This document shows, in pieces, positions 4,647 through 58,605 of a stretch of DNA of 64,000 nucleotides (its first letter is position 1; each line of letters opens with the position of its first letter). The stretch is from Rhizophagus irregularis. Its lineage: Eukaryota. The notes under the pieces were generated by a model. It had not been told where the DNA came from. It saw only the letters and a program-made list of their open reading frames with translations, and searched no databases. The stretch covers positions 3,224,001 through 3,288,000 of the forward strand of contig NC_089431.1 of the NCBI RefSeq assembly GCF_026210795.1. The letters run 5' to 3'. A program made the translations under genes and the position numbers.

Positions 4647-7600
4647 TTAATAGCTTACTTTGAATAGGTGCATTCCCTTGCCTCCACAAATGGATTTCAC
4701 TACCTCATATTCTTTTCTTGGATTCAAAAATTTCTTTTTGACCCCACCTTGATTCACTCTTGAACTTGCACGACGGAACAGGAAGATGGAGACCGGCTCA
4801 GTCTCGGCCGTTCCATATTCGACAGGTTCGTCTGACCGCCAAGTATCTTCGTCAGATTCTTCGTCAGCATTTTGTTCATTGAAGGTTTCATAACCTTGGC
4901 CGACTGTCGTTTGATTACCAGATTCCACTTCGTGATTATGAACTTCATTAGTGGGAAGTTCTTCCACTTTCATACTTTGCTCTTCACCGCAATACTGACG
5001 TTCTTCTTCGTGAACAGTTCTCACCCGAGGCTGAGTAAATGTTGGTAACTCACGTCCAACTCCAGAACGCCTACTTCCCGGTGAAACATTTTGTTCAATC
5101 CCAAACGAATTATACATTCCCGACCTATTTGAACGAATTGGAGACCCAGGAAATGTTGGTGTCAATCCATTGTTGTTATTACCGCTTGGACTAGAGATGT
5201 TACGTGGGTCACCGAGTGAACGACTAGAGATAAATTCATCATTGCGGAATCCGTCATTGCGATCGTATATATCAACAGAACCCCCCCGATTAAATGGACC
5301 TGGATTCGATCTTAAAGAAGACATTTGAGGAGAATGTGGTTGAGGTCCAACATAAGAACCTCTTCGTGGGCTTGATTGTATCCCATAATCAGAACTAAAT
5401 CGGCGCTCATTATATTCGGAAGAAATTGAACGATGTGGAGGTGAGAATGCCGCCGACGCTCCGGGAGAAGGTTGAGATTGTGGCAATGAGGGCGAAAACA
5501 AAAAAGTAGAGTTATTTCGAGGTAGTCTAGACGATAGCTCTGACTGTTGATCAAATGAAATTTCATCTTTTAAAGAAACTTCTTTATTAATAGAGTCATT
5601 TTCGTTAACGGTCGAAGTTTTATCTTCGTGCCCAATTTGAGGATTAATGTCTGAATTTGCCACGACACTCTCACCGTTTTCATTCAAACGGATCTTTTTA
5701 CGAGGCTCATCCTCATCTTTATGAGGATCATAATCGATGTTTTTGTTACCATCATTTTGAGTCTGCCGATTTTTCCCTGTTTCGGGATAGTTCCATTGAG
5801 ATTCACGAGTTTGTGTATTGAAATAATAATCTTTGTTCCTACTAGACTTGCATTTTATCCAGGGATGAGGAGGTAAAGAATCTTCATCCTCGTTTACTGG
5901 AACTCTTTTCGACTCCTTTATAAATTGGTCTTGAGGATCTCTATTTTTTTCTTCTTGCATATGTGCTTCTTGCGAATAATCCCGAATATTATCACGTTGA
6001 TTGTCCATGAGAGTTTGAGCAGGTCTCTCAGTATCAGAACGTCGCGTAGATTCAGACCTACTTGTACGAGGCACTGGATCATCTTCCATATCCCGTCTTT
6101 TTTCCAATTCTCGTTGATGGCGATCATACAAATGCTTTTGCGGATCCGTTCTCTCAACGGAGTTACTCCGACTTTCGTGGTCATCACGAACTCGATCTCT
6201 CATATCCCGATCATAATCAACACGATACTTATCAATGTTATAGTCTCTTTCGTACTCCCGAAGTGATCGACGATCAGGTTCTTTTAGATGGTCCGATAAA
6301 GGTCTATAATGGTCAGGTATACCGACATTACGATCATGGGTGGGCGACATTCGGTCTTCTTTACGATTCGTTAAATCTCTATCCTGATCTCTATTTACTA
6401 CAACTCGATTACCATCTTTAGAAGGATAATCTTCACGATGGCGTTGCTCTCTCTCTTTATCCCTGATACGATAGTCAGGAAGACGTTGATTGAAAGAATT
6501 TGCATCACCCCTTTGTTCCCGATCATAATAAGCCTTACGCTCATTAAGTTCGATGTCTTCCCTCTTTCTTTTATCAGGTCGATCATGTTCAGTAAGAACG
6601 TTAGGCTGGATATTTCGTTGTCTAGGTTCTTTATCTCGATTATCTTGGTAAACAGAATCATTTTGAGTTTCGTTCTTAGAGCGGACAGCTGGTTGCCGTT
6701 CATCTCTTCGAATTGGCTCTGGTCTTAAAGCTTGATCACGGTGGTAATGACCATCCTTCTCTCGATCGCGAGGTGGAGGATCTCTTGGATTTCTCTCAGG
6801 AATACCAACATTACGAGGATCATCGAGTCTACGAGCATTAGATATTCTTTCATCTGAACGCCGAAAAGTAACATCTATTTGGTCATTTCTGCGGAGATTT
6901 AATGAATCTCTATCTTGCACTTTAAGATCTCTAGAAGAGATTTCCTTTTCTTTTGACAAATCTCTGATCCTTGGATCGCGATCTCTATTAGACAAATCAT
7001 CACGCTGTCGGGATATTCGATCACGATCTCTTTGGAAATCTTGATGCGGTTGCCATTCGCGAACATCATCACGTGGCCGAAGTTCTCGATCTTCTCTCTT
7101 AATTCTTTCAGGTGATCGTGTTCTACTTGGAGGTTTGTCGGAGTCGCTTGGAGATCTACTTGTAGCGCCTCGGATAGTACTGTTTGAAGAAGTTTCAGCA
7201 TTAGGGGTTCGGCTACCATGATCATTTCGATTCCGTTCAAATTCGCGTTGAAATCGATCCCTTTCGTTTCGACGCGGAATATCCAAATGGGCTTTATCTT
7301 CCAACAAACTTTTATTATACCTATCTTGACGTTCTCTTTCTCGTCTATCTCGGTCGAAACTTCTGTCGTCATGCGCTCGATCAGTAGCTATTGCACGATT
7401 ATATCTTTCTTCTCTTTCGCGTTCACGAATATCTCTTTCATATAGTCGGGTTCTACGATCATCTACGTGAGACTGTTGAATAGAAGTTTCCCGGCTGGGA
7501 CGGTCATAGCTCCTATCAGAATTACGTCCATCGTCAGAATTTGTAGCACGATTACGAATTCTTGATGGTATTTCTTTGTTATCAATGTCCTTATTTCTTC

Positions 7601-8792
7601 CGTGTTCCTTTCTTTCACGATCTTTATATGAATCAGGAATAGGTGACATATTCCTATCACTACGTGAAGTAAAAAGTTGGTCTGATTCGCCAAATTCTTG
7701 ATCCGCAAATTGTTCACCCATAAACGAAGGGTCTTCTTGATCTTCGTCTTCAATGCCCATCAAATAATCATCATCAGCTTGGATCGATACGACATCTTCT
7801 TTTGCTATATCTGATTCATGATCAGATTGCGCTAACCCAGAAATATGTTCATATACAGCATTATTTTGTTGTTGTACAATAAACTCGGTCGAACCGACAA
7901 AATTCTCTGACGTTTCATCATTCCCACCATCTTTAATCTCGTTTAAGACTCGTTCGGCATTTTGAACATTGTATTCTGCAGGTGACTGTGGTGAAATATC
8001 AGCTTTGGGCATTTCCTGAAAAGTTTTTGTATTATCTTCCATTTCCTCTCTTTGTATGTCCCTTGCACTATTTATTTTTATTTTATTTTTTTTATTAAAT
8101 AATTAACGCATAATCAAATAACAATAAACCTTTAAATTATTTTGATCTACAACTCTTACTTTGAAGTTGAGGGAATTTCTGATTCCTGAAAGTCATCTTC
8201 CCCTACAGTTTGTTTTTGTTCAAGTTGTTTGTGTGAGTTTCTTCGTAGTGGTCTAGGTTCTTCACGCTTTCCACCTTTTACGGTATTATTGGGATTAATT
8301 TTAGAAATTGCCGTATTCCTCTTAGTACCACCCTCAGATTTATTCTTATCGTCCTGTGTTGATTCTTGTTTAGGTTCACCCTCTAACTGCTCACGTTCAG
8401 CCTTTAATATTTAAAGTAACAATCAATAAATTTGTGTCCAGCCAACATCCTACAATTATATGCCATTATACAGTCGTCATAATCACCTTCCGTGCGTCTG
8501 AAATTCTCCTTGATTTACGAGTTTCAATCCCAGACAGGTGTTCCTTAACTTCTTTTTTGATTGTGGGCTGTCTTGGTAAGGGCGCAGCGCCTGAATTTTT
8601 AGTGCCAAGGCGATCAAAAACTGATTGCCTAGGCACTTGTACCTGAGTAGTTTGTTCAACCGGTTGAATACGTTTTTTACGTTTGTTCGGAGGTTCAGTT
8701 GTTTGTATTTGAGTATTTGGTTGATATGTAGAAACACTGGCTTGAGTATGAGGTTGGTTATTTTTATTATTGTTTTTAGATCTGCGACCCAT
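4647..8792 (-). CDS. Large disordered R/D/E-rich protein with one WW domain; three exons (8792-8487, 8401-8160, 8067-4647), ~1320 aa
   Basis: GT-AG introns 8486-8402 and 8159-8068 are phase-compatible (the 242-nt middle exon restores frame) and link ORF 8466..8792 to the 1131-aa ORF. WW motif: LPPHPWIKCKSSRNKDYYFNTQTRESQWNYP. Confidence 0.8.
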
Positions 8793-20377: not shown

Positions 20378-23300
20378 GAGAAAATTTATTCATCGCACGT
20401 GCGATGACATCGCTACCCCCCATTTTATTTATCACGTGATAAATCCAATTAAAATATAGCACGATTATTGTGTTACAATAAATATAAACAATTTTATAGC
20501 TTCGTCGATAGTTTTTTTTTCTAACACTCTTTTTAAATAAAAAAAACAACCTGTTTTTTTGCTTAAAAACGCGTTAAAGTTGCTTCTTAACATTTAAAAA
20601 TACTTTTATGTACTCAAAAACTTTAATTGTTCAATTATCATAAAGAAATTGGGTTACACAGCTCAAGAGTGATTCGTGAAACATGGAAAACGATAACACT
20701 CCACAGGTTAGTCAATTGCGCACATTTTTTTTTTGTGAAATACTACTGAAATACTATTGAAAGTGCTTAAAAAAAATTAATTTGGGGTAAACGGCATATG
20801 GTATAGAGTTTTAATAGTGTTAATTTCTTAACAATTAACATCAATAGCATTATTTATTAGTTAGATAGCGTTAAATGTACATTATTTATTAGTTAGGTGA
20901 CGTTAAATAGCGTTAGATATATATTAATTAACGTCACAAAGCATTATATTATTGCGCATTAATTTATTGGTATTAAATAGCATTACTTTAATGTGCTTAA
21001 CAGCTAACTTATTTATTAATCTATTAAATAGCAAGAAATTGAAACTGAAGTTGAAATTCCCGTAGAAATTATTCTTGGTTCAGAATTAGAAAGTCTTGAC
21101 TCTACAAATTATCCTTCATTAACACATCCTATAGAATTATCTGTTAATTCAAAATTTAGTTCGTGGGAAATTGCTGAACATTATCTAAAGGAATATGGAA
21201 GGCAAAAGGGATTTGTAGTTAATAAATACCGAGTTGAATATATTCAATTATCAAACTCAACTGTTCAAATTCCCAGAAGAAGAACATTTGCTTGTGAATA
21301 TGCTGGAAAGTACAAACCTAACTATAAGTCTAAGCAAATTGATCAACAACGTAATAAAGGGTCAAAAAAAACTGATTGTAAATGGCGGGTTCACTTGAGT
21401 AAAACTATAAATAATAATTTCATTCATGTAACGTCTATCCATCTTGAACACAACCACAAAATACTTGCTGATAATACACAATTTGCTACAACATTCCGAA
21501 AATTTAATCAATCTATAATGAATGAAATTGAACATGCAGTTATACATGGACGTTGTGATGCATATACTATAAGAAATCTATTACAACCATTATTTCCCGA
21601 CCAGCTTTTTCTTACACAAGATCTTTCAAATGCAATTCAAAAAATTAAACGTGAAAAAAAAATAGCTAGAACGATGCTTCTCATTTGTTAAAATTTCTCC
21701 TTGAACGACAAAAAGAAGAACCTATGATGTTTGTTCAACCTTTAATAAATGCGGATAGTGATAGACTGTGTGGTATATTTTGGATAACGGAAAATCAAAT
21801 TATTTTGTGGACGCGTTATTCAGATGTTATTTTACACGATAATACCTCTAACTAATAGATATAACTGTCCATTATCTCTATTTATACTTGTTGATAATGA
21901 TGGTAAATCACGTTTAGGGAGGCACAAGCTTTTTTAAATGATGAAACTCAGGAAAGTTATGAGTGGATTTTACAACAAACGCTAAATGCAACAGGAATTG
22001 AACCAAAAGTTATAATCGCTGATATGGATCCTGCAATGGATGTGGCATGTCAAACTACGTACAAAAATGCGTATCACATACATTGCATTTGGCATATGAC
22101 CCAAAATTTACCTAAACGTCTCGAAAAATAAACTTGGTGCTGCAGATTTTAAGATATTTTTTCATGATTTTTGGAAAACTCGCAATTCACTATGTGCGAG
22201 GTTTTTGAACAACGATTTCAAGCTTTATTAAATAACTTTCCCAGTGGCAGTGATTATTTACATGACCCAATATATTCAACACGCCATTCATGGGCACGAG
22301 CATTTACAAACAGAATATTTACAGCTGGTATACAGTCAACACAGCGTGTGGAGTCAATAAATGCCATTATTCATAAAGTTGTTAATTCTAGCTCTACAAT
22401 GGCAGAAGTAGCTGAGGCATTAGATTCTCGAATGCAAAAAGAAGAAATAAACAAGAATTTTATAGCATGGAAATACAAATCAACAATATATCATCAGCCA
22501 TTTGTTGTGGAAAATTTTTTTAGTAACGTTAATAATATAGTTCAAAAATATTTTTCACCAAGAATTGTTGGGGAAATACATAAACAAATGTGCGAATCAA
22601 TAATTTACAAATGTGAAAAACTAGATATTAAAGATGCATTTGAGTTTATTGAGGATCAACTGGTGAGTAAAAAATTAAAATTATAGTAGAATGATATAAT
22701 AAATGTTTAACTAGTACTATTATGTATATATTTTTAGGATCAAAATGAAATTCCCGAAAATCAAGAAAGCCAAGGAACGTCAAATGATCAAGAAGAAACC
22801 AATAATATTGAAGATTATTACGATTTTCGCCAGACATACTTAAAATCATTGTTAAATTCAGTACCAAAAGAAATGATTAAAGAAGTATGGCGTATCATTC
22901 CATATATGGTGCCAAGTTCATATCAGCATATTATTATTCTTAACGATGGAACCCATTTATGTACATGCTTGTTATTGGTTTCATATGGAATTATTTGTCG
23001 TCATTATTTTAAATTAATGATTGAAAATCCAAACGCATTATTCCATATAATGCTAATGCCAACAAGATGGCTTCTGGATGACGCTTGGAATCACATTGAC
23101 TCTATTTTTAATGAAGCTTTTATCGGAACATCATCTAAAAATTTAAAGCCAATTCATGATGATAATATTGATCAAAGGATTTATCTTGTCCTGGCGTAAT
23201 GTCAACGTTCGAAGTAGAAATTCGTTATTATACGCGAAAAAAAGTAGATTATGGTCGAATTATGGGACATTTTAAGAAAGCACTAAACTATTCATTTGAT

Positions 23301-25120
23301 AATAACGATCAAAAAAATTTAGATGATATTATACTAGCTTACATTGCGGAAAAAGAAACTATTATGACTCAATTAGAAAGGGGAAATGTTCTTAAAGACA
23401 ATAATACAAATAATCAATTAAAGTTGTCTGATGGTCGTACATATGATGTAGATGATATTGGAAATCCATTAAAACGTCAAGGAAAAGGAGACCTGCTACT
23501 AAGCGATTAAAAGCTTGTAATGAACAAAAAAATAAGGCGAGTACGACACAAAAATCACAAAAAGAGAATGTACTATATGAAGAAAATATTGAAAATTCAA
23601 ATGGGCGTAAATGTGGTTTGTGTCGTAAAATGGGTCATTATGCTCCCAAAGTGTCCCAATAAGAAAAACGTATAATATTTTAACAATTAAATAAAGTAAT
23701 AATTTTTACTGTGTATAAATAATAATTTTTTAGTACATGTAAGCTAATTTATTAAGAGTTGAACAATATACAAATACAATTCTGAATTTCTAATATTTAA
23801 ACTAACCTATAAAGGATATAATCCCACGAAAATCCTTATCATAAAACACTATTCATACCCTTCGTTGATTTATAAAATAGTGTGTTGAATTTCATTTTGT
23901 TTATTTCTGTATAAGCAAGGCTGTACGTCTAATCTTTACATTATGTTAATATCTAAATAAAAATTGGGCATTAGTTTGCGAGTTCAGAATTTCATTGCAA
24001 ATGCACAACCACGACTAAAATATTCATACTTGTTTGTATAAATACCTCTTTCTATACTCCTCTTTCAAACACTTCGGATGCAATAAAAGGTGGCTTATCT
24101 ATTATATGTGGTCGCACAGATCTGTTGTGCATTTATTCCAAAATAAATCTCAAAAATATCAAGCGTTTCCTGATGAAAAGTTTTGCCATTATCATATAAA
24201 AGAAAAGCAAAAACTAATTCTTTAAATTGAAGTATAAAAACGTATATACTTTTAATAAAAAAAAGAATTTGTTTGATTGCTACTTGATTAAACTAATGAA
24301 TTATATAAGAAAAATGATTAAAATCCAAGTTAATTTAAGTTATTAAAATTGATGAATAAAGAGAAATTTTACCTTCTTAAGCCACTGAAAAACACATCTA
24401 GATTCTTTAAAAGCAAAATCCATTAAAGATATTTGACAGAATTGCGTATCTTAGGAAATTCTTGCTATTTAATAGATTAATAAATAAGTTAGCTGTTGAG
24501 CACAATAAAGTAATACTATTTAACACCAATAAACTAATGCGCAATAATATAATGCTTTGTGACGTTAATTAATATACATCTAACGCTATTTAACGTCACC
24601 TAACTAATAAATAATGTACATTTAACGCTATCTAACATCACCTAACTAATAAATAATGCTATTGACGTTAATTGTTAAGAAATTAACGCTATTAAAACTC
24701 CAAATTAATTTTTTTTAAGCACTTTCAATAGTATTTCAGTAGTATTTCACAAAAAAAAAATGTGCGCAATTGACTAACCTGTGGAGTGTTATCATTTTCC
24801 ATGTTTCACGGAATCGCTTGAGCCGCGTAACCCAATTTCTTTACGATAATTGAACAATTAAAGTTTTTGAACCTACTTTACTAAGACATAAAAGTATTTT
24901 TAAATGTTAAGAAGCAACTTTAACGTGCTTTTTAAGCAAAAAAACAGGTTGTTTTTTTTATTTAAAAAGAGTGTTAGAAAAAAAAACTATCGACGAAGCT
25001 ATAAAATTGTTTATATTTATTGTAACACAATAATCGTGCTATATTTTAATTGGATTTATCACGTGATAAATAAAATGGGGGGTAGCGATGTCATCGCACG
25101 TGCGATGAATAAATTTTCTC
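20378..25120 (+). mobile_element. Mutator-like element (MULE), 4743 bp, with ~660-bp TIRs and a 9-bp TSD
   Basis: TIRs at 20378-~21037 and ~24459-25120 begin GAGAAAATTTATTCATCGCACGTGCGATG. The identical TSD TATTAATAA is at 20369-20377 and 25121-25129. Contains a FAR1/MULE transposase. Confidence 0.95.
20683..23675 (+). pseudogene. FAR1/MULE transposase with several frameshifts
   Basis: Exon 1 MENDNTPQ (20683-20706), intron to 21031. FAR1-type DBD RRTFACEYAG..GSKKTDCKWRV; DDE core ILHDNT, IIADMDPAM, HIHCIWH, GIQSTQRVESIN; SWIM CTC..GIICRH; C-terminal knuckle CGLCRKMGH. Split over several ORFs. Confidence 0.9.
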
Positions 25121-26880: not shown

Positions 26881-28482
26881 TCAAATGTTTTCAAAAGATT
26901 TCCCTTTAATAGCTGAATACTTTGATAAAATGTTCTTTCTAACAAAATTTTCAAAAACTTCATCATAATCTTCCTTTACTTCAATCATACCAACTAATTC
27001 CAAATGTAAAGGAATCCTTTCATTATTTTTCCACATATCCAAAAAATCCCAAAGATTATATTTAGTAATAAATAAAGGATTTTTTAAGTATAATTTAAAA
27101 AGAGGATCAGGGGATTGATCAGCCAATAATTCCATTATTTTAGTATATTTTCTTCTATTCCCCTCACCATCATCATATTCAATTTGAATTAAAGGTTCTT
27201 TAATAAATTCCAATTTTAATATTTTTAATCTATCACAATTTAGTAATAATTGTTCAAAATCTTCGTATATAGTATCTTTATAACAAATTCCAAGAAATTC
27301 TATTAAAGGACAAAATGTTGAGATAGTTTGAATATATGAATGAATATGAGTATCAGGATAAATTGAGAATTTTGAATCAATATCGATTTTTCTCAATGAA
27401 TTATTTCTTGTAGTTGAAATTAATTTTTGAAAAATGTGTAAAGGTTGAAGCCAAGGAACTGAAACATCATTATTATATTTGAGATAAAAATTTTCAAGAT
27501 TTGGTAGAAAAGAATCACTCAAAGCACGTAAAATATTTGTTGAAGATAAAACTTCATTTTCTTCCTTGTGATGCCTTATTCCGCATTCATGATTTAATTT
27601 CAAGCTAAGTGACTTTAAATGAATCAAAGATTCGAATGTATCTTTTGGTAATTTCACTTCTCCTTTAAAAGATAAATGAGTCAAAGAATTTGACTGTGAT
27701 CTTATTTCCTTAACAATATTGGTATAAATAACTCTCTCACTCATCACCATGTGAAATTCTTTTAAATTCTTTTGATTACTGATAAGATAAGCCAATCCTT
27801 CATTATCTCTATCAAATCTATCCACATTGATTTTTTGAATATTCCTACAAATTTTTGAAATATTTTTGTAAGTTGCTGTAACCAATTCCTGATCATATTT
27901 TTCTGAATTATCACAATCCAATTCAGTAATTCTTGAGAAAAACGTTTTTCCTATAACAAATAAATTAGTATCCAATTTGAACGGAACATTTTTGAATGAA
28001 ATAGGGGAAGAACAATGATATATAAACAATTTCCAAAGATCATTAATCAAAGAATGTGCATCATAATAATCATCCTTATGATGAATCCATTCTTCACTAG
28101 TAAATAATAAATGTGCCATCATTTCAATTTCTGTACTATTAAAACAACGTATATAACTAACATAATCGAATAAAGGAATTTTTAATTTTGGTAACGAATT
28201 AGCTAAAATTTTTTTAATATGTTTTTTAATTACAGTAGTATCTTTTAATAAAGAACAGGAAAGAATTATTTTACAAAGTAATTTTTTATTTTTATTATGT
28301 AAATTTGGGTTAATGAATGGATTTTTCCATAAAAATGGAGCGGCAAGTTCACACCATTGTCGATTTACTAATAAACATGAAAATAATGTTGTGTGAATTT
28401 CTTTACTTTTATGTGTATTTGTAATTATTTCAAATATTTGCCAAAGACAATCTTTGGATAGTTTTGGATTTGAAAAAGACAT
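26881..28482 (-). CDS. F-box/LRR(RNI)-like protein, 533 aa, intronless
   Basis: N-terminal LSKDCLWQIFE..LFSCLLVNRQWCELAAPFLWKNPF and FDYVSYIR, followed by LxxLxL repeats. Confidence 0.85.
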   Translation of the reverse strand: MSFSNPKLSKDCLWQIFEIITNTHKSKEIHTTLFSCLLVNRQWCELAAPFLWKNPFINPNLHNKNKKLLCKIILSCSLLKDTTVIKKHIKKILANSLPKLKIPLFDYVSYIRCFNSTEIEMMAHLLFTSEEWIHHKDDYYDAHSLINDLWKLFIYHCSSPISFKNVPFKLDTNLFVIGKTFFSRITELDCDNSEKYDQELVTATYKNISKICRNIQKINVDRFDRDNEGLAYLISNQKNLKEFHMVMSERVIYTNIVKEIRSQSNSLTHLSFKGEVKLPKDTFESLIHLKSLSLKLNHECGIRHHKEENEVLSSTNILRALSDSFLPNLENFYLKYNNDVSVPWLQPLHIFQKLISTTRNNSLRKIDIDSKFSIYPDTHIHSYIQTISTFCPLIEFLGICYKDTIYEDFEQLLLNCDRLKILKLEFIKEPLIQIEYDDGEGNRRKYTKIMELLADQSPDPLFKLYLKNPLFITKYNLWDFLDMWKNNERIPLHLELVGMIEVKEDYDEVFENFVRKNILSKYSAIKGKSFENI

Positions 28483-29083
28483 TTTTTTTATTTTATTTTA
28501 TTTTATTTTTTTTCCTAAATAGTAAAGAAGCGAAGTAAAGAAAAAGGAGAAAAGGTTAAACAAACGATGAACAATTGAAAAAAAAAATCAAATTTATCTT
28601 TTTTTTCGTAATCTGTATATATATATGTATAATAATACGAATAAATGTTTGTTCATCTGATCTGTGATGTATTCATTGCTAATTTTGCCTAATTACTATA
28701 ATAGCCAATTTGCTAGCTAGTTTTGACATTCAATGATTTTCAATCGCTGCGGTAAATTCTGGTGATCATCTTTGGCGTCATATGCCTAATTATTTGATTC
28801 TTTTCAACTGATTGATATTTTTAAAACTTATAAAAACGATATAACTTTTTCGAGTTACAATCTCCTGAATTTATAATGTTGTCAATTTCTTATTCACATG
28901 ACAATTGGATGATCGTTTTTCCGGTTGATTATTAATTATTATATAATTCCAGGGGGTAATATCATGCGATTTTAATTAAAAAAAATGCAGTGTGACTGGT
29001 TACACAATAACAATAATTAAAAATAAACAATAAAAAATATTTTTCTCGCCTTATTCAGTTTTACCGTATTTTTGAGAAAAAAA

Positions 29084-30311
29084 ATGTATAATGAATTAAA
29101 TGAACGTATGAATAAAATGTCTGTTAATGAAGAAATTATTACAAAAAGTAATGATGGTTGTAATGCTAAAAGCTTAATCGAAGATCGAATCATTCTTAAC
29201 GTTGGTGGTATCAAGGTAACGAAGAAATAAAACAATCCTTTTTGTTAAAAATTAAAAAAAACTCTTCACCTTTTTAACTTATTTTTTAAAAATAAAGTAT
29301 GAAACGTTTATATCGACATTGACAGCATATCCTGATACATTACTTGGAATAATGTTTTCGGAACGGAATAAAGATATGGTACATTCAACGAATGGAAATG
29401 AATATTTTTTTGATCGAGATGGTTATTTATTTCGATATGTTCTTCAATATTATCGAACAGGAAAAGTTCATTGGCCAGAATTTCTATCATCAAATCAAAT
29501 GGAAAATAATTCATTTGTAGATAAAGGATTAAAACAACCCGCATCGCCAATAGAAGTAGCGGGAATAATATCATTAAATAACAAAGAAGGAGGAGTAGTG
29601 GATAATTTAACTGGATTAGGAGTAGGGAATTACGTATCATTACCATTCACAAGAGAAGAATTGGAACAAGAATTATTATTTTTTTTAATTCCAACAAGAT
29701 CAGATGAAGAATTAACTGAATCCATATTACAGGAAGAATCATTAAATGTTACTACACCATTATTAACATTTGCAAATAAAGCAGTGGTAGATAATGTTAA
29801 TGGATTTTTATATTCATTAAAAGAAGTGATGTATTCTTTGGCATCATTATTCGAGAAAAAAATCATGATAACATTTTATCACGATAGACGAGCGCCAGTA
29901 TTTAAATTAATACCACCAAATCCAAACATTATTATGAACGAATTAGCGCCCTTTAACGAAAAAATGAAAACCATTTTAACACCTTATGCGGGAGTTGGAT
30001 ATACTTTATTAATGAATTTTGAAAACGAAATCGAAGCTTGGATGATTGAAGAAATTAAAGAGTTGAGATGGTTTATGGAGAAACCCAGTGGGTTACCTAA
30101 TAGATTTGTTTTATATTTGAGTTTTAATGATAAATTTTTAAAACAGCAAATTTTAAAAAATAGTTTACTATCCAAAGTTGTGAATGGAGGTAATGCAAGT
30201 CAAAATTTAAATACAAATGTAAATGAGAATACTACGACATCATCTGCTACAAATGCAATGGGAGAAAGTTCTGGAGGTGATGCAATTGCAAATTCTTCAA
30301 CAACATCATGA
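29084..30311 (+). CDS. KCTD/T1-type BTB/POZ domain protein, two exons (29084-29215, 29298-30311)
   Basis: A phase-0 intron at 29216-29297 gives DRIILNVGGIK|YETFISTLTAYPDTLLGIMF..EYFFDRDGYLFRYVLQYYRTGK. Confidence 0.92.
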
Positions 30312-30535: not shown

Positions 30536-32113
30536 TTAAAATGGAAATTCTTTGATCCATTTACCTGAATCAACAGTTAAAACATCATCTTTAATAAATT
30601 TATCAATAACAACTAAATAAGGATGCAAGTCTTCTTTTTCATTATCTTTGATTTTTAAAGTTAATTTAATATTTCTTGGTTTCCATAATTCCAAAAAATA
30701 AGATAATTCATGAGGTAATAACCACCAAAGATTACTTAAATATAAATAATTTAAATTGATAGAAGACCAAGCAATTAAAGCATCTAATAATGATTTAGTT
30801 TGCAATTCCCTTTCCATATTATAATCATAATTTTCATCATTTTGTACTTTTAAGAAATCAAATTCAATAGAATTTAAATATTCAGCACTAATTAATAATT
30901 GTTTAAAATCATTCAGTAAATCACTAATATACCAAATTTTTAAATGATTAATTAAAGGACAATGATTAATTATTGATTGAATGAATAATTGTAATCCAAT
31001 TATCTTTGAGGGAGGTCTTGTAGCATTAATTATTTCAAATTTCCGAAGCAAACCTTTTGTAGTTGAAATTAGTTTTGAAAAACAATCTAAAGAAATTTCA
31101 AAGGAATAATAATTTAAGTGAATAACAAAAAATTCCAACTTTGGCAAAACAGTTAAATTTAATAGACAATTAATATTGCTATATGTAGCAAATTTAATGT
31201 GTAATTGCTTTAAATTATGTAAAGAAGAGAGAAATGAATTTTGTGAAGAAAAATAAAAGTTTCCTTTGAATGATAATATTTCAAGTGAATTAGATTTAGT
31301 TGATAATGCCTGATTAATAAATCTTAAATTTTCTACATGTTGATTTGTAAATAAATGTATCTCTTCTAAATTATTCTGCGCTTTAATTAAAGTAGCCAAA
31401 CCTCTGTCATCTTTATCTAAAGGATTAATCCTAATTTTTGTTAAATTATGACAAATATTAGCCAATCCAATAAAATTTTTATTTATAGATTGATTCATTT
31501 CATTTCCAACTACACATTCCAATTCATTTAACCATCTTAAACATTGTTGAGATCCAGGTAATATACTAATATTAATATTTTGAGGTAATTTAAGATATTC
31601 AATATTATTACATTTTTTCATAAATAATCTCCAAATTTCTTCAAATAAAATATAACCAATATTTTCTTCGTGTTTTTTATCAAAAATAACATTTAATTCT
31701 CGTTTATTTTCAATTAGCATTCTAGTCACATTTTCAATATCTAGACAATTAATATGTCTACAATAACTTACATAATCAAATATTGGATCTTTCATGGGGT
31801 TTTCAAAAGAAATTAATCCAAAAATATCGGTCAAATTTTTGTCCTGTTGTTGTTCACGATGATATTGTAACAAACATGATAAAATTGTTCTCGCGATAGA
31901 AAGTTTTTTATTATAATTGTTTTTTGATTTATTTGAATTTGGATTCCACGGATTTCTCCATAATATTGGTATAGCATTTTGAAAAAATAATTTATTTACT
32001 AATATACATGAGTAAAGGTTTTTATGCGTTATATGAAGATATTCTGATGAATCAACGATATATTCAAATATTCGTCTTAAACAATCCGGGTATAATTGAA
32101 TTCGTGAATTCAT
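30536..32113 (-). CDS. F-box/LRR(RNI)-like protein, 525 aa, intronless; paralogue of 26881-28482
   Basis: LYPDCLRRIFE..LYSCILVNKLFFQNAIPILWRNPW and FDYVSYCR. Motifs shared with the paralogue include GLA.LI..Q.NL, SNSL..LSFKG and KLISTT. Confidence 0.85.
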   Translation of the reverse strand: MNSRIQLYPDCLRRIFEYIVDSSEYLHITHKNLYSCILVNKLFFQNAIPILWRNPWNPNSNKSKNNYNKKLSIARTILSCLLQYHREQQQDKNLTDIFGLISFENPMKDPIFDYVSYCRHINCLDIENVTRMLIENKRELNVIFDKKHEENIGYILFEEIWRLFMKKCNNIEYLKLPQNINISILPGSQQCLRWLNELECVVGNEMNQSINKNFIGLANICHNLTKIRINPLDKDDRGLATLIKAQNNLEEIHLFTNQHVENLRFINQALSTKSNSLEILSFKGNFYFSSQNSFLSSLHNLKQLHIKFATYSNINCLLNLTVLPKLEFFVIHLNYYSFEISLDCFSKLISTTKGLLRKFEIINATRPPSKIIGLQLFIQSIINHCPLINHLKIWYISDLLNDFKQLLISAEYLNSIEFDFLKVQNDENYDYNMERELQTKSLLDALIAWSSINLNYLYLSNLWWLLPHELSYFLELWKPRNIKLTLKIKDNEKEDLHPYLVVIDKFIKDDVLTVDSGKWIKEFPF

Positions 32114-32359
32114 AGTAAGAAATTTTTTTAAAATTTTTTTTTTTTACAATTTCTTGGAGAGAGAGGGAGAGGGAGAGAAAAAATGCCCACAATTGTTAAC
32201 GAAAGATAAAATAAATGATGATTTATTGTAATTTACGGATGTGTAAGATTTCACGTTTTTTGGGACTTTTAATAATGAAAAAGTATTCTGTTTGTATTAC
32301 AATGTGTTTGTAATTCTGCAACGTGTCACTGAATAACCCACGCGGTAAAACCGCAGTAA

Positions 32360-34351: not shown

Positions 34352-35677
34352 ATGGAAGGAAGAATAAAGTTTATTTATTTTGTTCCCGAAAATGATAAAC
34401 TAGGCATTGAAAATTTATATATATTCTGCGACTAGATAATTGCCTAACCATTCCAATCTTCACTGATTAAACTAAATAATACTTCGGTAAGTGAATGATT
34501 TAACTTTTTGCATATTATTTTCAAAAAATAACCTATACATTTTATACATTCCTTGAATTACAAACAGCCTGTATGGGAAGTATGGATTACTCTTCCACTG
34601 AAGTTTTCGGCACTGAATTAACGGAGATAGAAAATAAACCTTGGTTTTCATCTCTCTTTTATTTAGACCAATGTATTCCTACAACTTCTTGTATCATGGG
34701 AAGTATGGATTACTCCTCCACTGAAGTTTTCGGAATTTTGTATCAAGTTGGCACTGAATTAACGGAGATAGAAAATAAACCTTGGTTTTCATCTCTCTTT
34801 TATTTGGACAAATATATTCCTACAACTTCTTATATCAATCTGGTTATTAATGATGAAATTAGACCTACGTTTTTATATTTTCACGGTGAAGTAGAAATTT
34901 ATAAATTGTATTCAGTGTTTGCTTGCCTTCTACCAAACGAGTACATAAAGAATAGTACATTAAGCATTAAGAATGCCAGTGGTTTGGAAGTTGGATCGTG
35001 GAAAATATATGAGAATAATATTATCGACAATTATGGTTGGTATATAACAATCATTTTGCTACCTCTTTTACTTTTTTATATTAATTTTTCTTAATTCACT
35101 TAGATGTATCATGTGAATCAGTTGCACAGTCATTATCGTCATCCACAACACCAATATCGGCAACCACTCTTTTTTATCCTTCACCTCTTTCGGAAGCATC
35201 GACATCTCCAACAGCGTCACCAGATCCAAATACCGCATTGTTTTGTATTAATTGTGGAGTAAAAGAAACACCTTTATGGAGAAGAAAAAGAATGGAAAGA
35301 TATTGCAATGCGTGTTGTCTATAGTAAGTGTGTTAATAATGTTTACTTAATTGCAATTTCATTTAAAAAAATTAATATATTAATATGAATTTCGCTTGGA
35401 TTTCTTATTTAGTTTGAAAAGAAACGGAATCCATAGGAAATTGAATGGTAATAAAGTGCTTAGAAAAAAGAGGAAGAAAAAAAACCACTCTTGTGCAGAA
35501 TGTAATACAAATTATTCACCTATATGGAGACATTTTGACGATAAGATCTATTGTAATAAACACGGACTTGCAAAAAAAAAAGATTATTCCCTACCTATTA
35601 TAATAAAAACAATAAACACGGACTTGCAAAAAAAAAAGACAAACCCGATTATTCCCTACTTATCAATAAAAATTTAA
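34352..35677 (+). pseudogene. GATA-type zinc-finger gene with two fingers, probably pseudogenised
   Basis: Finger 1 CINCGVKETPLWRR..CNAC (~35244-35315), an intron, LKRNGIHR, then finger 2 CAECNTNYSPIWR..CNKH. The putative first exon from ATG 34352 hits TAG at ~34433. Internal in-frame duplication at 34573-34830. Confidence 0.6.
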
Positions 35678-37204: not shown

Positions 37205-39493
37205 TTAGTCTTGAATTAAATCACCAAACCAATAATCATTAGAGGGTCTTTTTCTTTTATCACCTAAAATTTCTTCAGATACTTTAGCTATTCTTAAAAG
37301 AGTGGCTTCATCGAACCATTTTGCAACAAATTGTAATCCAATAGGTAAATTATTATCATCATAACCTGCTGGTACCGATACTGCTGGTATACCGGAAAAA
37401 TTAGCGAAAGTAACATACATCATTACTTCTGATACTGTTTTTAAATCTGCTTCTCCATATTTTAATGAATTCGGATAAATTTTTGGTGCTGTAATTGCCG
37501 TACTTGGAGTTAAAATTAAATTTACTTGTTTATTAAATAGATTTGAAAGACTGCGCATTAAACGTGTACGTAATTGTTGCGAGATAACTAAATATTCAAA
37601 GGATTAACATTTTATCGCTTTCAAAAAGAAAAATTTAAAGGCAAAAGAAAACTTACTGTAATCCTAGAAAGAAAGATTGGATGATTTTTTTTAGTAAGCG
37701 AATACATGAAAAGTGAGTTTTGCAAATTTTACAAATAATAACTTACCGATGCTGTTGCAAAATGAAATAAACTCATATTTAATCTACTTTCACAATTATA
37801 TTTATGAAAATTTTCTTTATACTTTTTAGCAAACGTAGATATTTCCGAGCCAATAGTAAGTAAATGAGCTATACTTGCTTCTTCTAATTCGGGTATATCA
37901 ATTTCAACAAAGTTTGCTCCAAGTAGCTTTAACTTTTCAATAAAATTATTTAACGCTAGAGTTATGGTCGGATTATAAACTTGTTTATTCCATGCTGTAT
38001 ATATTCCAATTTTCAAATCTGATAAGTCTTTAGTGTTATATAGACCAGATAATGTCGGTTTGGGTTGGTAATAAGTATTGGGATCTTCTTCATCTTTTCC
38101 TGCCATCACATAATACGCTAATGCTAAATCATTTGCGCTTGCTGTCATAGGACCTGACACTGCTACCGTGGGGGCAAGTGGAACTAAATAAACATAAAAG
38201 TATAAATTATTAATTTACGTTTCAGAACCTTTTTAAAGTTACTTTTACATACGTTCTCCTTTTGAAGAAAATCTTCCAAACGTGGTTTTTAATCCGTAAA
38301 TACCACAAAAAGCAGAAGGAATTCTAATCGAACCACCACCATCACAACCAATCGCGATTGGACATAGCCCTGAAGCAACTGCAGAAGCACTACCGCTACT
38401 CGATCCACCAGTATAATGATCGATGTTATAAGGATTACGAGACGTGCACACACTTGGATTATTGCCTGTAATACTATTAAAAAGATGGATGAATTAATGA
38501 ATAGATGAATAGATGAATTAAACAAAAAATATATATATACAAATATTTTATGAATCTTACCCGATTCCAATTTCGTGCATAGAAGTTTTCCCGATAATAA
38601 TTGCACCTTTCTCTCTGAGCCTTTCAATAACAGTGGCATCCGTTTTAGCAATAAACCCTCGATTGATAAATGACGTACCAACATTTGTTTCGTATCCTTC
38701 CACATCTAATTCATCTTTAATTGCTATGGGTACTCCATCAAGTGGCCCTAAAGAACAATTATTTGCATATCGAGTAGTTGACGCAGTTGCTTGTTTTATA
38801 ATATCTTCTCGTTCGTATTTTATAATTGCGTTTAGAGATGGATTGCACTTAAGTGATCCTTCTAATTTTCCAATAAGAATTTCGCATATCTTTCATTTGA
38901 AAAAAAAAATTTAAAATTTATATGTGTATGTATAAATATTTTTTTTTTAAAAAAAATTGTTTTTACTTGAAGAGGGGTTGCCTTTTTTGTAAGATATGCT
39001 TTACGAAAATCACTTGAACACAAAAATCCAGAAGAATAATTTTGCTGTGCACTCTCATTTTCTTCGAAAATTTCCAATCCTTCTACCTTCTTTTTAAATT
39101 AAATCAAAAAAAAAAAAAATTTTATCATAAAAAAAAAAAACTTTGCAATATACTAATGATTAACATTTTAGGGTAGGATACTTTAGTTTCTTCAATTCCA
39201 AAATATTCTTTTGGTAGAGGAAGTGGAAAATTAGTAGGACATTCATCAAGATTAAGTTTTCTCAAAGCAGAAATTCTATCCCAAAATAAAAATGATGCAA
39301 GTCCTGGAACGTAATCTAATAAAAATATAAAAATTCGTAATGAAAAGCCGTTTATATACGGTCCTATCATTCGTTTGATAATCTAAAATAATATTTAAAG
39401 GAACACATTAATTTATTTATAATTTATAATATCAAAATAACTTAATATTAATTATATTTTATTTACCTCAGGGTTTTCATTTTCTGAAGGCAT
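37205..39493 (-). CDS. Amidase-signature enzyme (fatty-acid amide hydrolase-like), multi-exon
   Basis: Exon 1 MPSENENPE (39493-39467) splices to [12 protein letters not shown]. Catalytic motifs [19 protein letters not shown] and [21 protein letters not shown]-terminal [21 protein letters not shown]. Confidence 0.92.
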
Positions 39494-53445: not shown

Positions 53446-55392
53446 ATATTTTTACTTGTAATTAGGTAGCAATCTACTTATAAGTGATTATAACTAGATA
53501 ATAACTTATTATAGTAATTAAGTAACAGTATATATACTATTACCCAGTAGTCTATTTAAATATTATTAAATAAAAAAAATATTACTTGAAAATAAAATAT
53601 AAAACTTAATTTTAAATAATATATAATATAAAATGTTAAATAGCTATTATTTTAAATATAATTATTAAACCATCAAATTTTAAGTATACCATATAATCAT
53701 ATTCTTTAAGATTTAAAAAAAAAAAGGTTTAATTATAAAAATTATATATGAAATAATAAAAAGAAAGGTTTTATTAATAAGTTTATTAGTAATTTAAGAT
53801 TAATGTAAATGTACTTATAAGTTATAAGGGAGTTGTGATTATAATATAGAGAATGACTGTATTTGTTTAACTATTATATAATTTATAACTATTATTATAT
53901 ATTAAAAAAAATTCTATTTGGAATTAAAATATACAAATTAATATAGATTACATATATTTCACATTTGAGATTTGGAATTATAGTAGCCAAAAATGTACAA
54001 AATAATTTAGATTCTTAAAATTTTTGGTATATTTATTTTAAGGTATTAAAATTATCTAAATTTACATTGGCTTTACAAATCCTTCTTTAAAATTTAATTC
54101 GGCCAACATTAATTGATCGACATAAAATTTACCCTTTTTGAAAACACGTGTTTGAACCGGGTACGGATCGAAACTTCCAAAATAAACACCAATTAACAAT
54201 TTAATTTGTCTTTAACTATTAAAAGATTGTAATAAATTTTAAAGTTTATCCAAAGGTATAAGATGTGTACTTGAAGATTGAAAAGCTATTGAAACTACCA
54301 ATTCTTCCAATTCTTCTAATTCTAGACAGACCTTTAAATTTCATTTCCAATAGAATTTAAAAATTATTGGAAAGAAAGAATTTGGAATTGGAAAGGATTT
54401 GGAGAATGGGAAGATTGAATTCCAATAAAAATAGTTCATTGAAAGTTTCACGTATTATTTCAGCTTATACTTTAGATTAAAACGGATTGACCATTAAATT
54501 ATTATTATTTAAAAGTACAATATTAAAATTATGATATAAAAGATTGATTATAATCATGCAATTTTTTTTTATTTCTTTCTTTAATGATAATAACCAATTG
54601 TACAATTGTACGAAACTTTTTATTATTTTATTATTAATTTATGATTTGCTTCTACAAATAAAATTTCTCTTATACTATAATTTGTAACAATACCCAACTT
54701 TTATTTTTTTGAATCAGATTTAAAAAAAGAAAAAAATAATCAAAACAATTATCATCGTAATTTTTTTATTTATAGGTGAAATATTTTTTTTTGATTGTAA
54801 ACTTACAAATTTGGGATAATCTAATATTGCACGCGATAAATGATTTTACCTAGTTAAGAAAAAAGTATAAATGTATATTCCAGAAATATCCAAAATTTAC
54901 TGACATCAAAGAAAAAAAACTGCTTAATGACATAAAGTTTAATGAATAATGAAATTTGTGTAAGAATTATTAGTTTCTGCACGTTAAAAAAAAATTTACC
55001 TTTCTTGTAAAAATCCTTTAACTTAAAATTATTACTTTTTGACTTTAAAGTTTAAGTTCATGCAATTTAAAATTTCATTCTTATCCAATTATGGTCAATT
55101 TTAATAAAGAAGTCCTTTTTTAAATACCGAAAAAAACCTATAATCGTAGGACGAAATTACCTAATTACGATCATGAAAGAAAATCCTTGTCCTGGTGTTG
55201 ATTTACAATGCATAATGCATATATATATTACGAGCATCTTTTGATGGTATCACAAACAAAAATTGATTGGTAAATTAATCCGCAGAAAAAAAAAAAGAAA
55301 GACATCCTTGTAAAAATCTAATCAATTCGAAAATTTACAATTCAAAAGTTGATTTAATTGGTGTTATCATATCTTCTTTAAAAAAAATTTCT

Positions 55393-55400
55393 TATAAATA
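55393..55400 (+). promoter_or_regulatory. TATA box of the secreted repeat-protein gene
   Basis: TATAAATA lies ~155 bp upstream of ATG 55551 and is followed by a CT-rich tract. Confidence 0.5.
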
Positions 55401-55550
55401 TGCTCCTTTTTTGCGCTTTTCCAGTTTTTCCTCAGAATAAACATTCATTCTTTCAGAATAATAACAAAAAGAAAGAACAATAAATACTTTATTCAATTTT
55501 AATCATTCTCCTTAAACAATTTCCTTAATCTCCCTTATTTTATCAACAAA

Positions 55551-56612
55551 ATGAAAGGAACCACTTTAATCTCTATTACTTTGGCAATTCTTTATTTGAC
55601 AACTCCATCAGTTTTGTCAACTCCCATCGGCAGAAGAGATGTAACTCCCCCAAACGCTGACTTGAATGTTCACGGAGTTCCTATTGTAAATGCTGAGGCT
55701 GGTACTAAACGAAAAGTAGGCGCTGGAGTAGATCCTGGCGTTAATTTAGGTACTAAAGTCGGTTCTAATGAAGAGAACGTGGATCCTAACGTTCAAGCAG
55801 GCACTAAACGAGATGTTGCCGTTAATGCAGATTCTAAGTTATTGAAAGCTAAAGTAACCAAGCCTGATTCTAAACGAGATGTTGCCGTTAATGCAGATTC
55901 TAAGTTATTGAAAGCTAAAGTAACTAAGCCTGATTCTAAACGAGACGTTGCCGTTAATGCAGATTCTAAGTTATTGAAAGCTAAAGTAACCAAGCCTGAT
56001 TCTAAACGAGATGTTGCCGTTAATGCAGATTCTAAGTTATTGAAAGCTAAAGTAACCAAGCCTGATTCTAAACGAGATGTTGCCGTTAATGCAGATTCTA
56101 AGTTATTGAAAGCTAAAGTAACTAAGCCTGATTCTAAACGAGATGTTGCCGTTAATGCAGATGCTGGCGTGTTGAAAGCTAATGTTGATGGTGAACAACC
56201 TAAGCCAGAATCTAAACGAGATGTTGGTGTTGATGCAAATACTGGCGTATTGAATGGTAAAATTGGCAGTTCAAAATCCAATCCTAATACTAAACGAGAT
56301 GTTGGTGTTGATGCAAATACTAACGTATTGAAAGCTAAAGTTAATGGTGCAAAACCCACCAAACGAGTTAATGTTGATGTAGATATTGGTGAACCAGCTA
56401 CTTCTGGTACTCCTCAAATTCCCCCTCAAATTCCTCCTGTAAAACCCACCAAACGAGCTAACGTTAATGTAAATATTGATGGACCAGCTACTGATGGAGC
56501 GAAACCTGGTACTCCTCAAATTCCTCCTCAAATTCCTCCTAAACCTACTAAACGACAAGTTAAAGTTGATGCAGTTACTAAAGTATTGGACGCTAAAGTT
56601 AATAGTAATTAA
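55551..56612 (+). CDS. Secreted Kex2-processed repeat protein (KEP-type multi-peptide precursor), 353 aa, intronless
   Basis: Signal peptide MKGTTLISITLAILYLTTPSVLS. One RR and 12 KR sites delimit 13 peptides. Five identical DVAVNADSKLLKAKVTKPDS-KR units (66-bp repeats from 55812). Confidence 0.92.
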   Translation: MKGTTLISITLAILYLTTPSVLSTPIGRRDVTPPNADLNVHGVPIVNAEAGTKRKVGAGVDPGVNLGTKVGSNEENVDPNVQAGTKRDVAVNADSKLLKAKVTKPDSKRDVAVNADSKLLKAKVTKPDSKRDVAVNADSKLLKAKVTKPDSKRDVAVNADSKLLKAKVTKPDSKRDVAVNADSKLLKAKVTKPDSKRDVAVNADAGVLKANVDGEQPKPESKRDVGVDANTGVLNGKIGSSKSNPNTKRDVGVDANTNVLKAKVNGAKPTKRVNVDVDIGEPATSGTPQIPPQIPPVKPTKRANVNVNIDGPATDGAKPGTPQIPPQIPPKPTKRQVKVDAVTKVLDAKVNSN

Positions 56613-57071
56613 AATGTAAAAAATCCTGGGACTAATACCGAAAAATACAGACCTGGATAATATTAGTTCAAATTGAAGTTAATTAACTGAAAGTAATAAA
56701 TTCATTTTTATTAATTATTATTATTCCTACAGAAACCCTTTACCCTAATATATATATACTCGACTTAAATTACCATAATAATATAAATATTATAAATAAA
56801 ATCAACGATAGAATTTTTATTAATTTTTCTTAAATGTATTTAATGTACTTTTTCTTTAATATTTTATATACATAGAATTTATATATATCATGTATTGTGA
56901 TGTATGTGTTTTTTTTTTAATTAACCTTTTTTAAAAAAATAAATCGTGTTCTTAAATAATAAACATATTTATATAAATTTATAATGATTTTTTTACATTT
57001 CAAAATAAAATGTGAATTAATACATTTTTTTCGTTTATAATCTTGAAATGTTTTAATAGTATACCATTGTA

Positions 57072-58605
57072 CAGTCCCCGGTGAAAATAATGGCGGTCAG
57101 TTTTATATAACACATAAATTTTATAATGAAGTTATGAAATTTTTTTTTATTTTCGGAAAGAGGAACATGTAATTTATTATTTAATAGTTGACTTCTGAAT
57201 CAACACGTGATTCAATTTGATTTTGCATTCTATTATCTATTAACCTCGCAATTAATAACTATACTATTTACTATTTTCTTAAATTAAAGAAAATATTACT
57301 AGGAAACGGGAACCGTTGTAAGTCCGGAACGAAAAACTAAAATTTGCCGATTCATTGGGTGACGATCACGTGGCGGACAGAGAAACTCACGGGATCGATT
57401 TTTTTTCATAGTGCGTAAACATATATTGTCCTTCGCTTCGCTCCGGACAATTATTATTTTAGTTGTGGATTTTATATATTAAAAAAAAAAATTCTAAAAA
57501 GATTCTTACTTATTCTCAAAGAATTAAGAAATGGCTTATAAAATTGTTTCCTTTTTTTTTTGCATTACCATTTCTTAATATACTGCATCAAAAACAATCC
57601 AATGTTCTCATTAGAATTTGAGATATGGGCTTTTAAAAAAGAACAAGAAAAACTCATTATTGAAAGACATATATATATAATTTTTATATACTGTTGGCCA
57701 CTGCATATAGTATCCCCGAAAATAGTACCCCCATGATTAAGGCCCGGGTACCCATGCTACCTAGTTCTTGAATAATACCCGGGGTATAACCTCTAATAAT
57801 TTATCACTTTTCATATAATTTAATCCAAATATAGTACCCGGTTCCTCACGAGGTACCCGCGGGTACTATTCAATTTAAAATATCGAGTTCTTGAATAAGA
57901 CCCTGGGTACTATATGCAGTGGCCAACGGTACCACTTCAAAATTATGGAATTTGTTATTTTATAACTTCAACATAATAAAAAAAGCTCACCAATAATCTA
58001 AAAATTATTTGATCAGTCAAAAATACAAATATTTCAAAGTTTTCGCCAGAAAATCGGAATATTTGACAAACAATTTAAAAAAAAATGTGAAATAACCATC
58101 ATTTTGATTTTTGGTGGTATTTTTTTTTTTATAATATAGCTTTAATGTGGCATTTAGAATAAAAATATTTAAAAATTTTGGCATTTTTAATACATGTAGT
58201 AAGGAAGGGATATATTGGTTACAGGAATGCAAAAAAATTCCAGTTCAATTAGGAATTTCCTTAAAAATTTGATTTAAGAAAAAGTTACCAGTATTATAAA
58301 TAGATTTAAATGTAATGAAAGCTATTTTGGGTAATAAATTCAATATTTGAAATTACTTTTTATTGTAATAGAAACTATTTTGGGTAATAAATTAAAAATA
58401 ATGACCAGCTCTAAGGCCACATAAGTGATTGCCTTGGCCCTGAGAAAAATACTACAAAAAATTAAAAATAATGTCAATATTTGAAATTACTTTTTTTTTT
58501 TATTGTTTTTATAAATGAGCATTTCACTGTTCAATTTGATACTAAACAGAATAGTAATGAAGTTAAAAGCAGTATTCTTACCGCCATTCTTTTCGCCGGG
58601 GACTG
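57072..58605. mobile_element. Non-autonomous Tc1/mariner-type element
   Basis: TIRs CAGTCCCCGGTGAAAATAATGGCGGT / ACCGCCATTCTTTTCGCCGGGGACTG, TA on both sides. No transposase recognised. Confidence 0.8.
57691..57929. mobile_element. MITE nested in the 57072-58605 element
   Basis: TIRs CTGTTGGCCACTGCATATAGTA / TACTATATGCAGTGGCCAACGG with TA flanks and internal GGTACCC repeats. A related fragment lies at ~9328-9358. Confidence 0.85.

Follow-up and report, generated by a model that had tools for sequence, protein, structure and literature searches.

The stretch of DNA analysed here, referred to as the window, comprises 64 kb of the genome of Rhizophagus irregularis (contig NC_089431.1) with a guanine-plus-cytosine (GC) content of 27.7%, a value in line with that of the genome of this fungus. 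All coordinates are positions in this 64-kb window, and the cleavage-site and peptide features are predicted from sequence. The gene under study is an intron-free open reading frame (ORF) running from ATG to TAA at 55551..56612 on the forward (+) strand, which is the sole ATG-initiated ORF of at least 50 amino acids (aa) in the interval 54500-57800. Its 353-aa product corresponds to the catalogued protein RiSP731, and it is probably a precursor that would be cut by the protease Kex2 at 13 dibasic sites to give free linear peptides. The features of the locus, from the promoter to the end of the transcript, are as follows.

55393..55400 (+): likely TATA box, TATAAATA, 34-41 nt upstream of the mapped 5' end of the complementary DNA (cDNA); its function is judged from position only
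55434..55550 (+): 5' untranslated region, with the cDNA 5' end at ~55434
55551..56612 (+): coding sequence, 353 aa and stop, no intron (ORF; RNA sequencing (RNA-seq) without joints; identity to RiSP731 bar one 22-aa unit)
55551..55619 (+): signal peptide, residues 1-23, MKGTTLISITLAILYLTTPSVLS (Kamel 2017, Table S1C, identical N-terminus)
55620..55637 (+): predicted propeptide TPIG and RR site (from sequence; RR is kept in the relative P0002 and is RI in the relative P0006)
55638..55811 (+): two divergent N-terminal units of 23 and 31 aa, each closing with GTKR (from sequence)
55812..56141 (+): five identical 22-aa units, DVAVNADSKLLKAKVTKPDS-KR, 66 bp each (from sequence and Tandem Repeats Finder)
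56142..56555 (+): five divergent units of 21-31 aa, each closing with [ST]KR, two of them having GTPQIPPQIPP in common (from sequence; 78-bp and 90-bp periods)
56556..56609 (+): predicted C-terminal peptide QVKVDAVTKVLDAKVNSN, without a hydrophobic tail of the glycosylphosphatidylinositol (GPI) type (from sequence)
56613..56811 (+): 3' untranslated region, with AATAAA at 56795-56800 (RNA-seq; transcript end at ~56811)

The 13 dibasic sites of the protein comprise RR at residues 28-29 and 12 KR, with the residue ahead of KR being serine at six of the 12 sites and threonine at the remaining six. The tetrapeptide TPIG sits between the signal peptide and RR, and every unit except the last is terminated by KR or RR. 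Cutting the protein at these sites gives 13 predicted peptides of 18-31 residues, which represent nine distinct sequences, one of them (DVAVNADSKLLKAKVTKPDS) being present five times. The five identical 22-aa units account for 110 of the 353 residues and the other units are related. Tandem Repeats Finder reported a 66-bp unit repeated 5.4 times with a 98% match, along with extra 78-bp and 90-bp arrays that correspond to divergent units, and the nucleotide sequences of the five identical units differ at three positions, all of them synonymous. Ten of the 12 KR sites occur within a tail of the form [KN]P-x(0,1)-[ST]-KR, and position two after the cut is occupied by Val at 11 sites and by Asn at two. 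Cys, Trp and Phe are absent from the protein, its single Tyr and single Met both lie within the signal peptide, and Pro and Gly together make up 54 of its residues. An earlier interpretation of this DNA (the sequence-only reading) had described a signal peptide, a propeptide ending in RR, 12 KR sites each preceded by S or T, 13 predicted peptides of which five are identical, and a mature region free of Cys, Trp, Phe and Tyr. All of these points were borne out, the signal peptide by the published table and the others by the sequence and by splitting it at the dibasic sites.

The pattern of dibasic sites far exceeds the chance expectation. All 14 Arg residues are inside dibasic sites, despite the presence of 48 Lys, and KK does not occur. 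The mature region contains [KR]R 13 times, where 20,000 shuffles gave 2.5 on average and never more than 9; when the five identical units are reduced to a single copy it contains nine, where 20,000 shuffles averaged 1.5 and peaked at 7. KR is kept at the ends of units that vary in both length (18-31 aa) and sequence, as one would expect if it marks points of cleavage and not a fixed structural period.

Transcription had been set as a check on the sequence-only reading, and the gene was found to be transcribed, both in polyA RNA-seq reads and in published expression values. In run X24, 157 reads fell on 55301-56900 with zero joints and zero differences, this count being taken from 11,053,536 records (~24% of the run). 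The combined depth of both read directions is greater than 9 from ~55463 to 56758, falls to 1.9-2.9 in 56759-56812 and is 0 from 56813. A contig from run X2 begins at 55434, after 23 loose letters ending GGGG, which we take to be the tail of a template-switch cDNA oligonucleotide that would mark the 5' end of an mRNA on the + strand, and a contig from run X12 stops at 56811. The mRNA is unspliced and polyadenylated and extends from ~55434 to 56811. Stop-free frames also occur antisense to the gene, at 55793-56413 (-), 206 aa, and at 56271-56678 (-), 135 aa. With the cDNA 5' end placing the transcript on the + strand, these frames are taken to be shadows of the repeats and not genes.

The product could be matched, through a text search with its peptide motifs, to RiSP731 (RirT100890, gm1.3337_g) of R. 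irregularis DAOM 197198 (Kamel 2017, Table S1C; PMC5293756). RiSP731 as printed there has 331 aa and, by reading, the window protein is identical to it except for one extra 22-aa unit, which agrees with the origin in an arbuscular mycorrhizal (AM) fungus that had been proposed from sequence. In its row of the table, RiSP731 is marked '+' for T-REKS repeats and is given a signal peptide at residues 1-23, a call that comes from that study, whose methods name SignalP 3.0 (PMC5293756); the hydrophobic core of the leader and V-L-S ahead of the cut are also visible in the sequence. Entries for nuclear localisation signal (NLS), small-Cys-rich, tribe, Pfam and MEME-motif are blank, and the same table lists no orthologue in Laccaria, Tuber or Piriformospora and no best hit among R. 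clarus effector candidates or in Gigaspora rosea (PMC5293756).

The array at 55812-56141 holds five identical units in the window and four in the 2017 model of DAOM 197198. This difference may represent either copy-number variation between isolates or a collapse of the repeat in the older short-read assembly; among the contigs from eight runs, none spans the repeat array. Two variants were seen in other public runs, both synonymous: 55712 A>G (run X20), which changes the codon of Arg54 from CGA to CGG within a KR site, and 55727 A>C (runs X15 and X20), which changes that of Gly59 from GGA to GGC.

Expression of RiSP731 has been published for several conditions (Kamel 2017, Table S1B; PMC5293756). 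In germinated spores it stands at 2,461, 2,410 and 2,397 reads per kilobase per million mapped reads (RPKM) in three replicates. The fold change is 1.04 with GR24 versus control, -2.3 with root exudates versus mock, -180 in Medicago, -27 in Brachypodium and -8.8 in extraradical mycelium versus control, and minus infinity (0 reads) in Lunularia, with the later RPKM groups of Table S1B being allotted to conditions by the fold-change ratios. RiSP731 is a presymbiotic gene of the spore and germ tube, and not an in-planta gene.

The class of protein to which RiSP731 belongs is known in this fungus. Repeat proteins with [KR]R sites, as a source of possible Rep1-like peptides, were first noted and discussed for R. 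irregularis by Kamel 2017 (PMC5293756), and the count of repeat proteins processed by Kex2 (KEPs) for this species has been put at 12 (Le Marquer 2019; PMC6339444) and at 11 (Umemura 2020). By the definition of Le Marquer 2019, a KEP carries a signal peptide and three or more internal repeats that take up at least 15% of its length, with KR, RR or KK between repeats (PMC6339444). The window protein has the signal peptide, the repeats to this extent and the dibasic sites between them, which lends support to the Kex2-type precursor architecture proposed in the sequence-only reading. It shares these features with the other R. irregularis KEPs (PMC6339444, PMC5293756), but it differs from most of them in lacking a Ste13 (X-Ala/X-Pro) signature. 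Going by its features, RiSP731 should be among the R. irregularis KEPs that were counted; its peptide strings are absent from the searchable supplement text of Le Marquer 2019 and of Umemura 2020, Table S2 of the latter consisting of accessions without sequences. RiSP731 is down in symbiosis and so fell outside the 2017 motif analysis of up-regulated genes. Its name is absent from the main text of Kamel 2017, a full-text literature search gave no paper mentioning it, and literature searches on Kex2 or KEPs with Rhizophagus or arbuscular mycorrhiza gave no functional study of it. The novelty that the sequence-only reading had implied does not stand: this is an already catalogued gene of a known class, whose sequence, repeat flag, signal peptide and expression have been public in a supplement since 2017, and both Le Marquer 2019 and Kamel 2017 dealt with KEPs of R. 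irregularis. There is good reason to read the protein as a Kex2-type precursor, with cleavage and function as predictions from the sequence. What the present analysis adds are the transcript ends, the missing Ste13 signature, a beta-type periodicity, a relative with conserved sites, and the four-versus-five copy difference.

Under the proposed scheme of processing, the precursor would enter the endoplasmic reticulum and lose residues 1-23, Kex2 in the Golgi would cut after RR and after every KR, and Kex1 would then strip the C-terminal Lys-Arg. A trimming step by Ste13 would be omitted, since no X-Ala or X-Pro dipeptide directly follows the cut at any of the 13 sites (0/13). The output would be 13 linear, unmodified peptides of 18-31 residues, likely acting outside the fungus during spore germination. 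As regards the proteases, KEX1, KEX2 or STE13 is missing from only 15 catalogues in Le Marquer 2019, and R. irregularis is outside those 15 (PMC6339444); in Table S1 of that article Rhizophagus is found in sheets a and e only, and not in the sheet of the 15 deficient catalogues.

That the products would be linear and unmodified is suggested by the missing Ste13 signature and by the lack of an N-glycosylation sequon anywhere in the protein, of a GPI-type tail, of tailoring domains, and of Cys and aromatic residues in the mature part. The C-terminus (...LDAKVNSN) is hydrophilic, with no GPI-type tail seen on reading the sequence. Tailoring domains (DUF3328/UstYa, tyrosinase, P450 and methyltransferase) were sought with Pfam in 47 of the 50 stop-to-stop ORF pieces of at least 95 aa in the 64-kb window and none was found, the three pieces left out being those that overlap the gene itself and exons shorter than 95 aa falling outside the scan. 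This is in keeping with the statement of the sequence-only reading that no tailoring genes are recognisable in the window. The precursors of ustiloxin-type or dikaritin peptides, which are ribosomally synthesised and post-translationally modified, also combine a signal peptide with KR-delimited repeats; RiSP731 differs from them in that neither DUF3328/UstYa nor tyrosinase was found in the 64-kb window and in having cores without Tyr or other aromatic residues.

Few relatives of the protein were identified. A word-index protein search at near lengths gave no match, and at shorter lengths it gave only P0001, a fragment of RiSP731 itself, and P0002. The 353-aa sequence was absent from the protein collection on exact look-up, whereas in the ESM Atlas it is present letter for letter, with no usable look-alike. 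A Pfam scan of the protein (E up to 1) returned nothing above threshold and three sub-threshold, unrelated chance matches only. HMMER against 1.84 billion representatives gave 15 matches at E <=0.001, of which three are relatives, namely P0001, P0002 and P0006. Six of the other 12 (P0003, P0004, P0007, P0011, P0012 and P0013) are long unrelated repeat proteins that were matched through their repetitive composition. P0002 is a truncated fragment of 138 aa with 54% identity, in which the signal peptide and TPIGRR are nearly unchanged. Conservation of the KR sites was another check named in the sequence-only reading, and all five dibasic sites of P0002 (5/5) fall on sites of the window protein in the alignment, whereas the peptides between them have diverged. 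P0006 has 72 aa, with RI instead of RR and one KR kept. The signal peptide is near-invariant in both. A metagenome scan with P0002 yielded 23 loci, which were rejected as spurious; the eight that were read are low-complexity sequences of the KPNPGT type, with 56-59% GC and a bacterial look.

The predicted peptides open with a stretch in which hydrophobic and polar residues alternate (DVAVNAD, VNVDVDI, QVKVDAV). Summed over the nine distinct peptides, the hydrophobic moment at 180 degrees was above that of 2,000/2,000 shuffles, and the moment at 100 degrees (helical) was reached by 1,465/2,000 shuffles. An AlphaFold2 model built from the single sequence had a mean predicted local distance difference test (pLDDT) score of 57.9 and a predicted template modelling (pTM) score of 0.60, with pLDDT of 62-91 over residues 80-220. 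In this model there is one 15-residue strand per 22-aa unit, and KPDSKRD is located in turns. Foldseek of the model against the PDB gave no match at E <=0.001, the best having E = 1.9.

Several observations weigh against the release of free peptides by Kex2. Every processing step is deduced from the sequence, and the AlphaFold2 model would fit an intact, folded beta-sheet protein just as well. The evidence from orthologues consists of two truncated fragments, and in one of them, P0006, RR is replaced by RI. Four positions ahead of the cuts the protein has D, P, N, G or K and at no site an aliphatic residue, which yeast Kex2 prefers there.

If the peptides are indeed released, it is conceivable that these abundant amphipathic beta-strand peptides would coat, or self-assemble on, the surface of the spore and germ tube, much as the Rep1 peptides do in Ustilago maydis. 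Such a surface, repellent-like role is put forward tentatively, by analogy, as the most likely of the roles considered, and it is the weakest step of the explanation. It is weakly indicated by the alternating hydrophobic pattern, the strands of the AlphaFold2 model and the very high abundance of the mRNA in germinated spores. Rep1 is likewise a secreted precursor in which cutting at KR gives about a dozen similar, non-identical and Cys-free peptides, as is predicted for RiSP731. The Rep1 peptides form amyloid-like fibrils at the surface. They number 11 and are involved in attachment, as cited by Kamel 2017 (PMC5293756). There is, however, no sequence relationship to Rep1 by Pfam, and the peptides of RiSP731 are shorter and hydrophilic. 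Other findings speak against a repellent-like role. The peptides have a grand average of hydropathy (GRAVY) of -0.03 to -0.68 and a net charge of -3 to +1, and the shuffle test makes use of paralogous repeats, which are not independent samples. Extraradical hyphae, which are surfaces too, express RiSP731 8.8-fold less (PMC5293756).

It was also considered that the same processing would yield peptides acting as diffusible signals, either as an autocrine, pheromone-like or hyphal-fusion cue or as a presymbiotic signal that is directed at roots or soil microbes and is turned off after root contact. Signalling roles have been proposed for R. irregularis KEPs (Le Marquer 2019; PMC6339444), and the layout of RiSP731, with one peptide in five identical copies, resembles that of alpha-factor. 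Its expression, highest in germinated spores, 2.3-fold down with root exudates and much further down in roots, would also suit such a signal. We nevertheless regard this explanation as unlikely. A Ste13 signature occurs at 0/13 sites, whereas most R. irregularis KEPs carry one (PMC6339444), and there would be nine distinct peptides, not one ligand. The mature part is without aromatic or Cys residues, a level of ~2,400 RPKM is presumably above that expected for a signal, and the peptide bodies have diverged fast in P0002. The alpha-factor precursor of Saccharomyces cerevisiae (MFalpha1) differs further from RiSP731, which has no Glu-Ala or Asp-Ala spacers, no MF_alpha match in Pfam, a pro-region of only four residues without glycosylation sites, and heterogeneous peptides. 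A more general proposal would be that of a presymbiotic extracellular peptide system that is restricted to Rhizophagus-like AM fungi and shut off by root contact, its peptides being either beta-strand surface repellents or self-signals for germ tubes and their fusion; in this specific form it is doubtful. The sequence-only reading had spoken of an uncharacterised peptide signal, effector or surface-peptide system. In the functional sense RiSP731 is indeed uncharacterised, while the suggestion of an effector is contradicted by the published expression.

The possibility that the protein is secreted whole must also be weighed. It would then belong, as a beta-rich repeat protein, to the wall or matrix of the spore or germ tube, and KR would represent uncut, exposed turn residues. 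Such a reading draws on the AlphaFold2 model, with its regular 15-residue strands, KPDSKRD turns and pLDDT of up to 91, and on tandem-repeat surface proteins being common in Glomeromycotina (PMC8786786). However, little weight attaches to a model of a perfect repeat built from one sequence (mean pLDDT 57.9 and no PDB match at E <=0.001), and KR ends units of 18 to 31 residues, so that it does not follow one structural period. Moreover, Arg is confined to dibasic sites, and the protein has no Cys, no N-glycosylation sequon and no GPI-type C-terminus that could be seen. It also differs from the GPI-anchored AGL and intrinsically disordered surface proteins of Glomeromycotina (PMC8786786) in being without a C-terminal GPI signal and without their Pro/Gly-rich composition. 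An uncleaved wall protein appears quite improbable.

A role for the peptides as antimicrobials guarding the germinating spore is very unlikely: they are Lys-rich (48 Lys in 353 aa) and the gene is active at the time of spore germination in soil, but their net charge is merely -3 to +1, their helical amphipathicity is not above that of shuffles, their hydrophobicity is low and they contain no Cys or Trp.

An in-planta effector like SP7 is so improbable that it can be set aside: RiSP731 is a secreted repeat protein and is matched to jgi|Gloin1|3337, one of 220 R. irregularis effector candidates (Sedzielewska-Toro and Brachmann 2016, via the table of PMC5293756), but its expression peaks in germinated spores, drops 180-fold in Medicago roots and 27-fold in Brachypodium and is absent (0 reads) from Lunularia, and the table of Kamel 2017 does not flag it for an NLS. 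The SP7 family (SP7, RiSP752, RiSP769 and RiSP867) resembles RiSP731 in that its members, too, are secreted by R. irregularis, are built of tandem repeats and have conserved [KR]R sites. Its members differ, when the repeats are compared by eye, in being rich in Tyr, Asp and Lys as opposed to Val, Lys, Ala, Asp and Asn, and the SP7-like RiSP752, RiSP769 and RiSP867 are placed in tribe T7, whereas RiSP731 has no tribe. The SP7-like genes are up in extraradical mycelium and in planta, which is the opposite of RiSP731.

To our knowledge AM fungi are not transformable, and we know of little work on what they secrete before root contact. In germinated spores, RiSP731 ranks among the secreted-protein genes with the highest expression (~2,400 RPKM) and, should the predicted processing take place, a few defined peptides of about 20 residues would be present in large amounts outside the fungus. 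These peptides would be cheap to make and easily sought by mass spectrometry, which makes the gene a practical entry point. The value of the locus as a discovery is small, given that the gene has already been published together with its repeats, signal peptide and expression, and that the precursor class is well described in R. irregularis.

The neighbours of the gene in the window are ordinary eukaryotic genes, with Pfam identifying Sec1, Arb1, WW-domain, major facilitator superfamily (MFS) transporter, FAR1-type, F-box-like, BTB and amidase proteins. The homologue of Arb1, a subunit of an Argonaute small interfering RNA (siRNA) chaperone, is at 1980-2993 (-), and it is followed at 4650-8102 (-) by a WW-domain protein of 1,151 aa that is rich in Arg and Asp. 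An ORF with a FAR1 DNA-binding domain and then more open frames occupy 21032-23507 (+), and this region looks like the relic of a transposase of the Mutator-like element (MULE)/FAR1 type. Two ORFs of ~535 aa at 26884-28497 (-) and 30539-32143 (-), which appear by eye to be paralogues and of which one has a weak F-box-like match, flank an ORF with a BTB/POZ domain at 29256-30308 (+). F-box-like and BTB-type families are expanded in Rhizophagus genomes. An amidase with three exons is located at 37208-38892 (-). Finally, the open frame at 34504-35094 (+), for which there was no Pfam match, contains an internal direct duplication of ~35 aa (...GSMDYSSTEVFG...TELTEIENKPWFSSLFYLD...).

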